The position numbers were made by a program, and so were the translations under genes. Shown here piece after piece: positions 3,318 to 28,663 of a DNA stretch of 64,000 bases. A model generated the notes under the pieces. The model saw only the letters and a program-made list of their open reading frames with translations, had not been told where the DNA came from and ran no database searches. Every line of letters starts with the position of its first letter. Within the stretch, counting starts at the first letter, position 1. The stretch lies in assembly GCA_001029775.1 (NCBI GenBank), contig CP011215.1, positions 357,722-421,721 of the forward strand, read 5' to 3'. Source of the stretch: Candidatus Campbellbacteria bacterium GW2011_OD1_34_28. GTDB taxonomy: Bacteria > Patescibacteriota > Minisyncoccia > Phycocordibacterales > UBA12079.

Positions 3318-3373
3318 AAACCAAAAAATTACGAAATTTTCACGGTCGTGAAAATTTCGTAATTTTTTGGTTT
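3318..3373. repeat. Palindromic repeat, family P (AAATTACGAAATTTTCAC-GGTCGTG-...), variant copy
   Basis: Near-perfect 50-bp palindrome; related copies at 27927-27972, 28617-28663, 47794-47845. Confidence 0.7.
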
Positions 3374-10635: not shown

Positions 10636-11165
10636 TGACGTGGATCGCGTCGGCTTCGCCTCGCGAAGACGATCCGCACGAACAACGTGGACCTGCCTCT
10701 TTTCTGAAAGAAAAGCAACGACACGGCGAGGCAGGTTGTTTCATTGCGTTCGCAATGACAAATTTCTAAAAGAAATTTGTCACCTTCGTCGTCATTGCGA
10801 GCGTAGCGAAGCAATCCATCATGAACTGTTTGTCCGAAATTAATGGACGTGGACCTGCCTGCCGGCGAGGCAGGTCGCTTCGGCTTCGCCTCGCGAAGAC
10901 GACCCGCACGAACAACGTGGACCTGCCTGCCGGCAGGCAGGTCGCTTCGTCGCTTCGTTGCACTCCGCTTCTCGCGAAGACGAAGCCACGTCGTCATTGC
11001 GAGCGTAGCGAAGCAATCCAGGACGACGAACAACTCAAAATAAACGACGTGGATTGCTTCACTTCGTTCGCAAAGACGGAATTTCTCAAAACGAAATTCC
11101 GTCACCTTCGTCGTCATTGCGAGCGTAGCGAAGCAATCCATAACAACTCGGTCTTGCAAAGAAAA
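10636..11165. repeat. Dense cluster of nested palindromic repeats (families A, B, C); non-coding
   Basis: Three forward copies of cgtcgtcattgcgagcgtagcgaagcaatcca (10788, 10990, 11110) plus an inverted copy at 11045. A 48-bp unit is duplicated (10650/10880). cctgcctgccggcaggcagg palindromes. Irregular spacing. Confidence 0.75.
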
Positions 11166-18084: not shown

Positions 18085-18395
18085 TCCGAATGCCTCGAAT
18101 TAGAATCCGAATGCCCCGAATTTCGAATTAATCCGAATTATTAGGAATAAAATTCGTCTTCGCGAGCGAAGCGAAGCGATCCAGAACGACGAACGAACGC
18201 CGTGGATTGCTTCGGACTTCGTCCTCGCAAAGACGGACGGAAGACGAAGTTGGGCAAAGCCCAACTTCGTCAACGAATTTTCTTTCAGAAAATTCGGATG
18301 ATTCGGCAATTCGGAGCACCTGCCTGCCGGCAGGCAGGTTAGGATATAATTTGTAGTATTCGGATTATATTAAAAAATTAAAATTTAACAAAAAA
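18085..18395. repeat. Nested palindromic repeat cluster (AATCCGAAT/ATTCGGATT arms, inverted family-A pair, family-C palindrome)
   Basis: The inverted partners are visible in the sequence. The ORFs called here run through the repeats. Confidence 0.7.
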
Positions 18396-19550: not shown

Positions 19551-21494
19551 ATGTCTTTTTCTAAAACAACAAAAATAATAATTGCTACAATCATCGTCAT
19601 TGGTGGTTTTGCTCTTTTTTATTTTTTTCAAAATAAAAGTGATGAGAAGAACATGTTCTCTTTGGGAGAATTTAATCTGCCCGAGAGTTTTTTTGTGGAT
19701 GACGAGACAGAAATAAAATTTGAATGGACGGACGACAACAAGGGTGAAGATTTGATTATTCAATCAGATAAAAAAAGTTATTTTGGGATAAACAAGTCTG
19801 AAATTTATTTTTCTGTTTCCAGTTTGAATAAAGACGCTCAAAACTTTAATTTGCGATTTTTGTTTGGAGAAGAATCAGCAAAATTGGAAAAAATAGAAAA
19901 AATAAATTCAGGAGGCATTACGAGCGAATTGTCTTTATCCGAAAATACTTTCGTTAAATTTGACAGTATGGACGGATTCAGTTCTTCCTTGTATGTTGGG
20001 GACATTATTCAACCAGAGCAGACTAATTATTACAAAGCCGTGATTGCTTACAACCCGAATACAAAAGGCGAATTTTATATAGAAGCAAAAGGCGACAAAG
20101 GTGCTTATGGTCTCCTTGACCCATGGTACAATTCCACGGGCCTCGTCGGTTATTGGTCATTTGATGGAAATGATATGGACTGGTCAGCCACAACTGCGGA
20201 AGTGATTGATCGAAGCGGGCAGGGAAATCATGGGGATGCAACTAATATGACAAGTGCAAGTGTGGATATTGGAAAGGTTGGACAGGCTTTAGTTTTTGAT
20301 GGGGTGGATGATTCTATAAGTATTGGTATTGGTACAGATTATTTTCCGATGGATACTTTTTCTATGTGTAGTTGGGTTAAATCTCCAGGGCTTGCAGATG
20401 GGATGACACTTAATGGAATTTTAAGCATAACATATGGTTTGTCAATTTCATTGGATAATAGTGGTAGGTTTTTATCAAGAATGGATGACGGAGTTACCGC
20501 TATAAGTGTATCAGCAGGGGATAATTTAGCTGATAATGAATGGCATTGGGTATGTTTAACTTTTGATGGTATAAATAGGCACATGTTTGTTGATGGTGTA
20601 AATAAGTTATCAACACCAACTACATGGCTTGGAACAACTAGGTGGCCAACAAATGCTGGTAATATTGGATATGAAAATAATAATAAAGCACTTTATAAGT
20701 TTAATGGTTCAATTGACGAAGTTCTCGTCTACAACCGCGCGCTTTCCGTGGATGAAATAAGTGCTTTGTATAAATTGGGAACTAGAAAATCGCAGGTCAA
20801 AACCACAGGGTCTAACAAAATGAAAATAAACACATCAACCGTTAATCGTCTCACTGATGGCCTTGTTGGTCACTGGACTTTTGACGGCGCGGATATGGAT
20901 TGGTCATCAACAACGGCGGAAGTGTTGGACAGAAGCGGAAATGAAAATAATGGTAACGTTTTTGGTGAGACAAAATCTGCAATCGGAAAAATAGGACAAG
21001 CCCTAGAGTTTAACGGACAGAATGATTATGTTTTGTTTAACAATCCCCAAATAACAGGATCCGAGGTTTCCACTTTTGTCTCATGGTTTAAGGTAGATGA
21101 CCCCAGCAGATTACAAATGATTTTATATTGGGGTAACTTTTCTGATTATCTAGGTATGATGCAAGTAATACACGTTTCAACCGCAAAATGCGGTGGGACA
21201 TATAACACTATTAATTATTGGGTTGATACCGAGACAGTGGTCGCGGGGGAATGGAATCATTTAGCCTGTGTTTATGACGGAACGAACGTTCTGGCTTATC
21301 TTAACGGAGTTTATTACGGGAGTAATGTATACCCGGCAGCGGTAACTTCTAGCTCCCTTTATCTATCTAGGTATGATGCTACAAAGTATTTTAATGGCTC
21401 AATCGATGAAGTCAGAATTTATAACAGAGTCCTCTCTCCAACCGAAATAACAGAACTCTACAATATGGGAGCAAAAAAAATAAAAATTAGATAA
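19551..21494 (+). CDS. Membrane-anchored protein with two concanavalin-A-like lectin (LamG_3) domains
   Basis: N-terminal TM; two copies of LVGYWSFDG..DxSG.GN.G...FDG..D...YKFNGSIDEV.VYNR.LS..EI..LY. Confidence 0.7.
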   Translation: MSFSKTTKIIIATIIVIGGFALFYFFQNKSDEKNMFSLGEFNLPESFFVDDETEIKFEWTDDNKGEDLIIQSDKKSYFGINKSEIYFSVSSLNKDAQNFNLRFLFGEESAKLEKIEKINSGGITSELSLSENTFVKFDSMDGFSSSLYVGDIIQPEQTNYYKAVIAYNPNTKGEFYIEAKGDKGAYGLLDPWYNSTGLVGYWSFDGNDMDWSATTAEVIDRSGQGNHGDATNMTSASVDIGKVGQALVFDGVDDSISIGIGTDYFPMDTFSMCSWVKSPGLADGMTLNGILSITYGLSISLDNSGRFLSRMDDGVTAISVSAGDNLADNEWHWVCLTFDGINRHMFVDGVNKLSTPTTWLGTTRWPTNAGNIGYENNNKALYKFNGSIDEVLVYNRALSVDEISALYKLGTRKSQVKTTGSNKMKINTSTVNRLTDGLVGHWTFDGADMDWSSTTAEVLDRSGNENNGNVFGETKSAIGKIGQALEFNGQNDYVLFNNPQITGSEVSTFVSWFKVDDPSRLQMILYWGNFSDYLGMMQVIHVSTAKCGGTYNTINYWVDTETVVAGEWNHLACVYDGTNVLAYLNGVYYGSNVYPAAVTSSSLYLSRYDATKYFNGSIDEVRIYNRVLSPTEITELYNMGAKKIKIR

Positions 21495-21508
21495 AGATTA
21501 TACACAAA

Positions 21509-21527
21509 GACTGGGTCCGACCCAGTC
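21509..21527. repeat. Perfect hairpin gactgggtc-c-gacccagtc, copy 1 (upstream of RAYT gene)
   Basis: Identical copies at 21728-21746 and 22230-22248. Confidence 0.8.
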
Positions 21528-21549
21528 TCACTGTGTTAAAATAAAAAAC

Positions 21550-22251
21550 ATGAGAAGAAAAGTACTATTTGTAAACGGAGAATTTTATCATATCTTTAAT
21601 AGGGGAACAGATAAAAGAAACATATTTTCGGATAAAAATGATGCATTTAGATTTCTTGAAAGTATCGAAGTTTTTAATAATATTGAAGCCGGCAATAATA
21701 TCTTTCGCACTCATAGATTGAAAAATGGACTGGGTCCGACCCAGTCTAATCCAGAGAAGATAGAGAAAAAAGAACCAATAGTGAATATTATTTGTTATTG
21801 TTTAAATTCAAATCATTATCATTTTATATTGGAACAATTAGTTGATGGTGGAATAAGTGAATTTATGAAGAGGCTAGGAGGTGGCTATACTTGTTATTAT
21901 AATGAAAGACATAAAAGATCGGGGGTATTATTTCAGGGTAAGTTCAAAGCTGCTCATATAAAATCAAATGAACAATTATTGCGCCTTAGTTCTTATGTGA
22001 ATTTGAACAATAAAGTCCATCAAAAATTTGATAAATATAAAAAAAATTTCCTTGATTTGATTGCAAATAGATCAAGTTGGGAAGAATATATTAAAAAAGA
22101 TAATAAATACAGTATTTGCAAAAAAGATATCATTTTAGGACAATTTAAAAACAGAGAAGATTATAGAAAAAATGCCGAAGATGTGATAAAAGAAATTAAA
22201 GAAATGAGGTATGGGGAAGAAGTAAACTCGACTGGGTCCGACCCAGTCTAA
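21550..22251 (+). CDS. IS200/IS605-family HUH transposase, REP-associated tyrosine transposase (RAYT)-like
   Basis: EFYHIFNRG..IF, HUH motif NHYHFIL, GYTCYYNERHKRSGVLFQGKFKA..LSSYVNLNN; flanked by identical hairpins. Confidence 0.7.
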   Translation: MRRKVLFVNGEFYHIFNRGTDKRNIFSDKNDAFRFLESIEVFNNIEAGNNIFRTHRLKNGLGPTQSNPEKIEKKEPIVNIICYCLNSNHYHFILEQLVDGGISEFMKRLGGGYTCYYNERHKRSGVLFQGKFKAAHIKSNEQLLRLSSYVNLNNKVHQKFDKYKKNFLDLIANRSSWEEYIKKDNKYSICKKDIILGQFKNREDYRKNAEDVIKEIKEMRYGEEVNSTGSDPV

Positions 22252-22307
22252 ACGACCCAGTCTAAAAAGAATTTTGTTTGAAATTAATATAGTATAATAA
22301 AGATATT

Positions 22308-22760
22308 ATGAAAATATATATTGCATCAGATCATGCAGGTTACGAATTGAAACAAAAATTGATTGAGTATCTTCTAGATGAAGATTTTGATGTTTCTGAT
22401 GAAGGGGCATTTGAATTTGATGTGCAAGATGATTATCCAGATTTCATTTCAAAGGTAGCCGAAAAGGTTTCAAAAGATCCTAAAAATTCAAAAGGAATTA
22501 TTTTGGGTGGTTCGGGACAAGGAGAGGCAATTGTTGCCAATCGTTTCAAAAATATAAGAGCGGTTGTCTATTATGGCGGTGATATGGATATTGTTAGATT
22601 GTCTCGAGAACACAATGATGCAAATGTTTTGTCTTTGGGTGCGCGGTTTATTTCTTTTGATACAGCAAAGAATACAGTCAATTTATGGCTCAACACAGCC
22701 TTTTCTGAAGATGAAAGGCATTTAAGAAGAATTAAAAAGATAGATTCTTTAGATTTTTAA
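22308..22760 (+). CDS. rpiB: Ribose-5-phosphate isomerase B
   Basis: MKIYIASDHAGYELK...ILGGSGQGEAI. Confidence 0.85.
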   Translation: MKIYIASDHAGYELKQKLIEYLLDEDFDVSDEGAFEFDVQDDYPDFISKVAEKVSKDPKNSKGIILGGSGQGEAIVANRFKNIRAVVYYGGDMDIVRLSREHNDANVLSLGARFISFDTAKNTVNLWLNTAFSEDERHLRRIKKIDSLDF

Positions 22761-26699: not shown

Positions 26700-26790
26700 T
26701 TTAAGGTTAGGGTTTAGCGTATAGGAGACAAATTTTGCCAAAGGCAAAATTTGTCTTTGCGAGTGAAACGAAGCAATCCATAATCAAAAA
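26700..26790. repeat. Family-D arm, hairpin and family-A repeat
   Basis: ggttagggtttagcgtatagg...caaattttgccaaaggcaaaatttg...ttgcgagtgaaacgaagcaatcca. Confidence 0.65.
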
Positions 26791-26822
26791 ATTGAGAGGT
26801 TCGACCTCTCAATTTTTTTTGT

Positions 26823-27845: not shown

Positions 27846-27926
27846 GTAATTAGTATATAGTATATAGTTTTTAGTTTCTAGTGTTGGGGTTGGGGACTAT
27901 GGGTAAACCTCAATTGTTTGTGTTTA

Positions 27927-27972
27927 TAAAAATTACGAAATTTACGCGACCGCGTAAATTTCGTAATTTTTA
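27927..27972. repeat. 46-bp perfect palindrome AAAATTACGAAATTTACGCGACCGCGTAAATTTCGTAATTTT (family P)
   Basis: Identical copy at 28617-28663; in divergent promoter region between the PfkB gene and ORF 28000. Confidence 0.85.
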
Positions 27973-27999
27973 TTTTTAAAGTTATAATATGACATATAT

Positions 28000-28616: not shown

Positions 28617-28663
28617 CAAAAAATTACGAAATTTACGCGACCGCGTAAATTTCGTAATTTTTT
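28617..28663. repeat. Second identical copy of the family-P palindrome
   Basis: Exact match to 27927-27972. Confidence 0.85.

Follow-up and report, generated by a model that had tools for sequence, protein, structure and literature searches.

A Y1 HUH nuclease gene of Candidatus Campbellbacteria with copies of a private, plausibly cognate hairpin at fixed sites

Known relatives and the nuclease of the window

Nucleases of the Y1 HUH type are accompanied by short palindromes in several described systems. In the insertion sequences (ISs) of the IS200/IS605 group (IS608, ISDra2), the gene of the Y1 HUH transposase TnpA lies between two hairpins, which are recognized as single-stranded DNA (ssDNA). 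In the REPtron of E. coli (YafM, PDB 4ER8; PMC3333891, PMC3479197), a single-copy, vertically inherited Y1 HUH gene is flanked by its own palindromes, and each paralogue has a palindrome family of its own. TnpA-Y1 subclass 2.4, from Cyanobacteria and Bacteroidetes, carries cognate repetitive extragenic palindromes (REPs) in frame in a peripheral loop of the nuclease gene, plus flanking copies; such in-frame intragenic REPs have been called unique to this subclass (Quentin, Siguier, Chandler, and Fichant, 2018, PMC6006769). Subclass 2.1 (PMC6006769) corresponds to the Bertels Group 1 RAYTs (PMC5581495) and to most TIRYTs (TIRtron, PMC3733652). Its genes are of low copy number and have flanking repeats at a fixed distance, often not repeated elsewhere in the genome. 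They are reported to be without REP-like hairpins, the TIRYT repeats being long terminal inverted repeats with a GGGGWSAS motif (PMC6006769, PMC3733652). Linkers of housekeeping proteins, too, can carry short palindromes in frame; these are either Rickettsia palindromic elements or intragenic REPs, the latter with genes for DNA ligase, tRNA pseudouridine synthase B and DNA repair among their reported hosts in other phyla (Di Nocera et al., 2013, PMC3733652). Here we describe a Y1 HUH nuclease gene (21550–22251, plus strand) in a 64,000-nt stretch of AT-rich DNA (the window, GC about 34%) from contig CP011215.1 of Candidatus Campbellbacteria bacterium GW2011_OD1_34_28 (Patescibacteria, also called the Candidate Phyla Radiation, CPR), together with a 19-nt hairpin, GACTGGGTCCGACCCAGTC, that occurs beside and inside this gene.

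The copies of such a hairpin within one locus evolve in concert, and they occupy four sites in a layout that is widespread in this family of Patescibacteria: about 40 nt upstream of the gene (U), near codon 60 (S1), near codon 150 (S2) and at the stop codon (D). The S1 and S2 copies are read in frame and fall in two loops that are disordered; of the four sites, the window gene carries U, S1 and D. The hairpins are plausibly the cognate sites of the nuclease. We favor, with a probability of roughly 0.6, the reading that the gene encodes a resident, vertically inherited (domesticated) Y1 HUH ssDNA nuclease that belongs to the RAYT/TIRYT branch within the IS200 superfamily and comes with a recognition hairpin of its own.

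The product, of 233 amino acids (212–233 in homologues), matches NCBI protein A2996_03655 from the bin RIFCSPLOWO2_01_FULL_34. It belongs to the HUH/Y1 family, in agreement with an earlier, sequence-only reading of the window: Pfam Y1_Tnp (PF01797) matches residues 78–151 (profile positions 41–119) with 28.2 bits against a cut-off of 23, the N-terminal strand being displaced by the S1 loop. The HUH motif, already recognized in that reading, is N88-H89-Y90-H91-F92 (21811–21825, HUH codons 21814–21822). The catalytic tyrosine, which had been placed in a C-terminal region, is Y149 in SSYVNLNN (codon 21994–21996) and lies mid-protein. Across the 30 aligned homologues, H89, H91 and Y149 do not vary. 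The AlphaFold model of the protein (predicted local distance difference test, pLDDT, 84; predicted template modeling score, pTM, 0.82) falls below pLDDT 50 only in residues 63–70 and 226–233, which are the hairpin-coded peptides; its C-terminal part is modeled as a helical domain of no assigned type. The best fold match in the PDB is 4er8_A, the E. coli RAYT/TnpA-REP in complex with its REP, followed by the TnpA proteins of IS608 and ISDra2; the top entries 4er8_A, 2a6m and 2vjv have a Foldseek probability of 1.00. The canonical RAYT equivalog (NCBIfam NF047646, subclass 2.2) stays below its cut-off, with 21.3 of the 80 bits required. In a Pfam search with E-values up to 1, Y1_Tnp is the sole domain and no Bac_DnaA_C, HTH_23 or HTH_28 is found in the C-terminal part; neither Pfam nor NCBIfam detects a DNA-binding helix-turn-helix (HTH) domain in the nuclease.

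By the criterion of Table 1 in PMC6006769, the Y motif YVNLNN keeps the first N of the class 2 signature Y---NP, with N replacing P, and differs from the Y---Q of IS200/IS605 subclass 1.1. The motifs of subclass 2.1 are NH[YF]H, FQ, Y[IV]HLNP and an SS tail, in proteins of about 238 amino acids; the window protein has NHYHF, LFQGKFK, YVNLNN (two substitutions, the Y[IV]xLN core being kept) and RSSW, and it shares the length of ~230–240 amino acids with an extra C-terminal domain. Motifs and length, as compared with that table, fit TnpA-Y1 subclass 2.1, and the gene may be annotated as TnpA-Y1 class 2, RAYT/TIRYT-like, with motifs nearest to subclass 2.1.

The locus departs from each of these systems in a different way. 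In contrast to subclass 2.1, the flanking elements are short perfect hairpins that recur inside the open reading frame (ORF), and Pfam finds no Bac_DnaA_C/HTH C-terminal domain. Compared with the REPtron, whose structure is the closest match, the stems are perfect, with no 5′ GT[AG]G and no bulge, and there is a handful of copies per genome rather than hundreds; copies also sit inside the gene and in its promoter, the protein is ~70 amino acids longer, with a C-terminal helical domain, and the RAYT equivalog fails. Unlike in subclass 2.4, the in-frame copies occupy two fixed sites, S1 before the HUH motif and S2 after the Y helix, and the motifs are FQ and YVNLNN instead of WQ and YIxNNP; the REPs of subclass 2.4 are GTAG-tagged and dispersed. 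IS200/IS605 TnpA offers a mechanistic template, yet here there is no copy amplification, no tnpB near the gene, identical instead of distinct end hairpins, a class-2-like Y motif and a conserved chromosomal position. Intragenic REPs affect the same gene classes that carry solo copies of this hairpin (ligA, truB, mutM), but only three such solo copies were found and the main reservoir is the nuclease gene. In-frame REPs in RAYT genes of another subclass, REPtron flanks and private TIRYT terminal repeats are known already. Literature searches for this architecture in Patescibacteria/CPR returned nothing; the combination of subclass-2.1-like motifs with hairpins, four fixed sites including a leaderless promoter, in-place concerted turnover and near-absent dispersal was not found described and is apparently new.

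Hairpin sites and their concerted evolution

In the window, the hairpin GACTGGGTC-C-GACCCAGTC is exact at 21509–21527 (U), 21728–21746 (S1) and 22230–22248 (D). No fourth copy occurs in the 64 kb even with 3 mismatches (0.00 expected from shuffles). As ssDNA the copies fold with −8 to −10.6 kcal/mol (z about −4), U being the most stable (−10.6 kcal/mol, z −4.4) and embedded in a longer imperfect palindrome (21502–21536). S1 is read in frame as codons 60–66 (GLGPTQS), within N59–N67 (NGLGPTQSN), and is predicted by AlphaFold to form a disordered loop at the surface that connects helix A with the strand leading to the HUH motif, in keeping with the linker that had been suspected. The three identical hairpins and the half copy listed in the sequence-only reading are all present at these positions, except that the third abuts the stop codon (TAA, 22249–22251) and does not straddle it. 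D forms the last 19 nt of the ORF and is coded as S-T-G-S-D-P-V; the tail (residues 226–233) is disordered in the AlphaFold model. The window ORF reads through D, as its last 6–7 codons (STGSDPV), because the ancestral stop after ..YGEE has been lost.

The half copy (22254–22265, plus strand) consists of the 3′ arm and its flank, GACCCAGTCTAA, repeated 14 nt after its first occurrence at 22240–22251; the 3′ arm alone, GACCCAGTC, recurs at 22254–22262. The minimum-energy fold at D pairs the 5′ arm with this distal arm copy, the ensemble centroid being weaker. Tandem repeats of the 3′ arm of D with 3–5 flanking nt, at a period of 13–14 nt, are seen in the window (22240–22265) and at two of the family loci described below, L048 and L069 (three copies). 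This stutter may reflect slippage, or repeated rounds of cutting and rejoining, at the 3′ end of the gene. The S2 region of the window (22000–22075) folds no better than shuffles (z −0.5); S2 is taken as absent, and a decayed S2 hairpin was rejected as a candidate. An Rfam scan of 21300–22500 gives only sub-threshold chance matches.

Relatives were collected by scanning one genome per GTDB species, which gave at least 577 confirmed members; 80 loci were fetched (L numbers), all apparently from Patescibacteria-type metagenome-assembled genomes. In the alignment of 30 homologues, a G-x-P/R-T-x peptide stands at the S1 site of the window, and more distant homologues have the same peptide twice (e.g., QLGNPTSK ... 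QLGNPTSK), which suggested that in-gene palindromes are a family trait. A scan for perfect stems finds the same hairpin 2–4 times in most of the 80 loci, and under a relaxed scan 58 of 81 loci hold at least two related hairpins. In the latter scan the hairpin centers fall into four sharp peaks relative to the gene start: U at −50 to −25 (n = 53), S1 at 175–200 (n = 32), S2 at 450–475 (n = 28) and D at 625–700 (n = 42); per kb, the gene region holds 2.8 hairpins and the flanks 0.27. The consensus, ACTTGG-NNN(N)-apex-NNN(N)-CCAAGT, varies in its stem positions, and the window hairpin is one of the variants. Stems are perfect Watson-Crick pairings, typically of 9–20 bp (mean about 12, maximum 23), with loops mostly of 1 or 3 nt, and copies occur in both orientations, also at the same site. 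Homologues have an S1 hairpin of their own sequence at the corresponding position, read in the frame used by the window gene and coding for QLGGxTxK. In 40 of 42 loci, D starts at the stop codon or a few nt past it; it lies wholly inside the ORF only in the window and L057. At L029, four different family-type hairpins (CTTGG..CCAAG; 287–307, 818–838, 1195–1215 and 2819–2839) stand upstream of one family gene, three in apparent non-coding DNA and the one at 2819 within a 205-codon minus-strand open frame. They could represent hairpin variants arrayed together or the remains of decayed gene copies.

The copies resemble each other far more within loci than between them. Two copies from one locus have the same apical 9-nt arm in 72% of pairs, against 0.4% of pairs taken from different loci, a contrast reached in none of 1000 label permutations. 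This identity within loci, set against divergence between loci that include both syntenic orthologues and same-genome paralogues, is what identifies the process as concerted evolution. The window, L007, L015, L025, L047 and L080 (plus L057, rearranged) share a gapdh-rpiB-rpe-tkt(-LamG) neighborhood and are therefore orthologues; their proteins are 47–72% identical. Compensatory pairs (CGG/CCG, GGG/CCC, GTG/CAC and CTG/CAG) distinguish the hairpins of L007, L015, L025 and L047 from one another, and the copies of one locus have changed together; the hairpins of the window and L080 are more divergent than this set. Same-genome paralogues carry different hairpins in 6 of 6 pairs. Between orthologues as between paralogues, most of the hairpin differences are paired stem changes. 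The paralogue P0008, located on a Campbellbacteria contig of 369 kb among ftsW/glycosyltransferase genes, carries a GAGGACGTC-S-GACGTCCTC hairpin (GAGGACGTCSGACGTCCTC) of its own at U, S1 and D.

Where the perfect hairpin is missing, a relic peptide can remain, as at S1 of L025 (ELGGRISK) and in L047 (KLGSRTVK), and S1 and S2 are always in one reading frame. These relics and the fixed frame indicate that the sites are ancestral and were overwritten in place rather than re-invaded. The in-frame copy of the window had been attributed to insertion of the hairpin into its own transposase gene or to a nested or duplicated element; this does not hold, as S1 is a family-wide ancestral site, in the same frame in dozens of homologues, and U and D are conserved too. 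Copies of one locus, including inverted ones, can share an imperfection (L017, L010, L065, L022), which favors copying over independent selection.

The promoter copy, residency and dispersal

U overlaps the predicted promoter of the gene. The motif TGnTAnnnT, an extended −10, follows 38 of 53 U hairpins, in 26 of them exactly 11 nt from the loop center, so that its TG is the end of the 3′ arm; the 5′ arm provides a TTGGnn hexamer 17 nt upstream of the −10 (determined by hand from the listed sequences). An in-frame ATG lies 6–10 nt past the −10 hexamer in 36 of 37 such loci (mode 6), which predicts a leaderless mRNA starting downstream of U. In the window, the hairpin lies 5 nt further upstream than usual and the extended −10 alone is recognizable, as a putative TGTTAAAAT at 21534–21542 (plus strand), 7 nt before the ATG.

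This arrangement is also what would be expected if the palindromes were duplex operator sites, bound by a dimer or by the C-terminal domain of the protein. Such binding would repress at U and perhaps block elongation at S1, S2 and D, with no cleavage, and copy identity would come from co-evolution of specificity and gene conversion. U overlaps the −35, the spacer and the extended −10 at a fixed offset, the orientation of the copies is irrelevant, as it would be for a symmetric duplex site, and distinct sites for each paralogue recall regulators without cross-talk. However, some stems are extended site by site beyond the shared core, up to 16–22 bp (an S2 of GCACCAACTTGG...CCAAGTTGGTGC; 22 bp at D of L050), which argues for intrastrand pairing and not for recognition of half-sites. 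The HUH and tyrosine residues are invariant, Pfam and NCBIfam detect no HTH domain, the solo copies in ligA, mutM and truB have no obvious regulatory logic, and the imperfections shared by copies point to copying and not to selection. On balance we regard a purely operator-like role as unlikely.

The gene behaves as a resident of its chromosome. The exact protein is present on 12 contigs from different samples, always between a LamG-domain gene and rpiB. The 11 other public contigs are identical to each other over 841 nt; the window differs from them at 21501, 21816, 22140, 22209 and 22222, and none of these changes touches a hairpin. No second family member or paralogue hairpin occurs in the window. 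Because the gene occupies one site in the 12 contigs and synteny is conserved across ~50%-identical orthologues, it fits a vertically inherited, domesticated, RAYT/TIRYT-like gene; residency is the behavior that separates RAYTs from IS200 (PMC5581495).

An autonomous element of the IS200/IS605 type, with U and D as left and right subterminal hairpins, a unit of ~750 bp that is excised and reinserted as a single-stranded circle, and S1 as a stray copy of an end, would account for several of the same features. The hairpin-gene-hairpin unit of ~754 bp has a promoter in its left end, the Y1 fold matches TnpA of IS608 and ISDra2, and hairpins at both ends (U at 21509 and D at 22230 in the window) are found family-wide. 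Several family copies can occur per genome, and across the family the genes stand in many genomic contexts, the largest shared family of flanking genes covering 7 of 81 loci. The single insertion site in 12 of 12 contigs and the neighborhood kept between distant orthologues weigh against such an element. The same is true of the paralogues of one genome, which are divergent, with different hairpins and no near-identical copies, of the Y motif, which is class-2-like and not the Y---Q of subclass 1.1 (PMC6006769), of the missing tnpB, and of the conserved S1 and S2, which the IS model does not require. An active IS200-type element is for these reasons improbable, somewhat more so than an operator.

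Dispersal of the hairpin is minimal. The flanks of the 80 loci (424 kb) contain 5 extra cognate copies, most of them no more than a few hundred bases upstream. A scan of these flanks with a generic pattern gives 5 family-type solo hairpins, all intergenic, and cognate scans add a few more, one of which (L029) lies within an ORF. When the 19-mer GACTGGGTCSGACCCAGTC was compared with 241 million metagenome records of the Joint Genome Institute (JGI), 8 stretches were found: the locus accounts for one of them, two lie on unrelated contigs of 70% GC, and the remaining ones are single copies in ~34%-GC contigs. These solo copies are all in frame in housekeeping genes of Campbellbacteria, namely mutM/fpg (..KKTGSDPVQKK.., L095 5007–5025), truB (..KQTGSDPVLKK.., L096 10495–10513) and ligA (..IKTGLGPTQSKG.., L097 2323–2341), and use two reading frames (TGSDPV and TGLGPTQS). 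The ligA copy (LigA, A2996_02975) is in the same genome as nuclease A2996_03655, as is the mutM copy (the Fpg accession, OGD68358, being numerically adjacent); the truB copy belongs to a sister lineage. The solo peptides are conserved in 94–100%-identical Campbellbacteria orthologues. In-gene solo copies like those of the window hairpin may therefore not be general in the family. Within the 64-kb window the hairpin is confined to its locus, as the sequence-only reading had it, but it is not strictly private to the gene. The hairpin is not dispersed in the manner of a REP; its main reservoir is the gene itself.

The 5′ flanks are caaa, aatg and actc for the window copies and aaaa, aaca and actg for the solo copies; none has GT[AG]G, and comparison by eye reveals no conserved guide or target tetranucleotide beside them. 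A clean insertion boundary was sought for the mutM copy by aligning Fpg orthologues, and was abandoned, as the loop is hypervariable with many inserts and neither insert length nor target can be read. In other Patescibacteria this loop carries other long in-frame inserts, and the hypervariable loops of Fpg orthologues contain RRNFGSAKISS.., SLRASERSGEA.. and PPATARHKRA. These may or may not be translations of elements like the short GC-rich patches of cgcttcg/cgaagacg-type motifs that occur in the 34%-GC window at ~10860–11040 and 18180–18275.

A resident nuclease with a private hairpin

The hairpins are best read as DNA elements, because U lies outside the predicted mRNA of the gene, copies occur in both orientations and no G.T pairs are found. 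An action as RNA structures (mRNA stabilizers, RNase sites, pauses or terminators), for which the Y1 protein would be irrelevant, is very improbable. S1, S2 and the window D are transcribed, REPs elsewhere are elements of 3′ untranslated regions according to the cited literature, and a terminator scan flags S1 and D as terminator-like (2 found, 0.5 expected), on the minus strand only. U, on the other hand, precedes the predicted transcription start in those 36 of 37 loci, orientation varies at one and the same site, no T-run follows D on the sense strand, and Rfam has no match. None of 162 stems contains a G.T pair (G.U in RNA) and none of their 5 internal mismatches is G.T, a suggestive though low-powered comparison, and the scan penalizes mismatches.

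Equally far-fetched is the notion that the hairpins are generic mobile palindromes moved by another enzyme, with Y1 genes merely as favored targets: in-frame repeat inserts are common in protein loops of Patescibacteria (the hypervariable Fpg loop being an example) and the window has other palindrome families, but same-genome paralogues differ in their hairpin in all 6 pairs, the hairpin density of the gene is 10 times that of its flanks, hairpin positions are fixed, and the window hairpin shares no sequence with the other window palindromes.

Those palindromes had been taken as substrates of a RAYT mobilizer. Their sequences bear no relation to the nuclease hairpin, they lie between genes, and most are terminator-like, which leaves the proposal without a basis. 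Three of them (3318–3373, 27926–27973 and 28618–28663) are intergenic copies of one long AT-rich perfect palindrome, AAAAAATTACGAAATTT(A/T)C(G/A)CG..CG..AAATTTCGTAATTTTTT, with arms of 22–27 nt, and are probably the source of the remark that the genome is full of palindromes. A GC-rich palindrome, ACCTGCCTGCCGGCAGGCAGGT, occurs twice (10920–10943 and 18318–18339). After the copy at 18318–18339 comes TAGGATATAAT without a gap, ~50 nt ahead of the start of gapdh (18399); this arrangement of a palindrome and a −10 resembles the U site and could represent an operator or another repeat family. Two solitary perfect hairpins (18243–18271 and 26786–26818) also resemble the family type: GACGAAGTTGGGCAAAGCCCAACTTCGTC is similar to that of L002, and AAAAAATTGAGAGGTTCGACCTCTCAATTTTTT, which is terminator-like as well, to those of L034 and L056. 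Both may be orphaned hairpins of other paralogues. GC skew is positive in all but one 2-kb bin of the window (1–64000) and the cumulative skew rises almost monotonically, placing the whole window on one replichore.

If the gene is a resident nuclease packaged with its recognition hairpin, the enzyme would bind the hairpin formed on ssDNA, by analogy with the solved RAYT and IS608 enzymes, and would cut and rejoin at the hairpin foot. Short-patch cut-and-paste or cassette exchange could then keep the local copies identical, and occasionally the enzyme might seed solo copies into tolerant linkers, as seen for truB in the sister lineage and, in the genome of the nuclease itself, for ligA and mutM. 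The in-gene copies would be passengers tolerated in loops, which also tie the hairpin genetically to its enzyme, and occupancy or extrusion of U probably throttles transcription of the gene.

Several observations weigh against this reading. Of the within-locus pairs, 28% differ, and L035, L038 and L006 hold two or three different perfect hairpins; homogenization is incomplete, or there is exchange with other paralogues. RecA-dependent gene conversion or intra-hairpin repair could produce the identity of copies without the enzyme. For binding, cleavage and strand transfer the models are E. coli TnpA-REP and IS608, from which these steps are extrapolated; the former requires a 5′ GTAG together with a bulge in the stem (PMC3479197), and the family hairpins have neither. 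The orientation of copies is not conserved, which is not obviously expected of a strand-specific ssDNA enzyme and is expected for recognition of a double-stranded palindrome. A consensus promoter scan of the window locus finds no −35 and does not call the U promoter, so that the proposed promoter of this gene depends on the pattern seen across the family. The copy numbers of the private hairpins are moreover lower bounds.

A broader proposal, which we advance only tentatively, is that Patescibacteria hold a large undescribed class of enzyme-plus-address modules. Each Y1 paralogue would rewrite a private hairpin at its own four sites, with the promoter copy for feedback and a few extra copies in genes of replication and repair (ligA, mutM, truB); the stem would be a programmable specificity code, and the module might have a host function.

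The locus is of interest irrespective of this proposal. Peptides such as QLGGxTxK or TGSDPV in these proteins are to be annotated as translated palindromes and not as functional motifs. A subclass earlier reported to be without REPs can apparently have them, and plausibly cognate hairpins can be built into the promoter of a gene that is predicted to be leaderless. The rare extra copies show where such a hairpin can settle, several in frame in housekeeping proteins of tightly packed Patescibacteria genomes, others intergenic. What role RAYT-type domesticated transposases play, and how they recognize, spread and co-evolve with their palindromes, has long been debated as an open question. The family bears on it with hundreds of naturally occurring pairs, each consisting of an enzyme and a short, perfect, private hairpin; with compensatory turnover in orthologues and no cross-talk between paralogues, these pairs are a particularly clean dataset for decoding the recognition of ssDNA hairpins by HUH enzymes, which are also in use as sequence-specific DNA-protein tagging tools. 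If the modules are what we tentatively propose, the specificity code would be readable from these pairs, and a possible host function would be the targeted nicking or marking of ssDNA at ligA, mutM and truB, so that the gene would be more than a fossil transposon.

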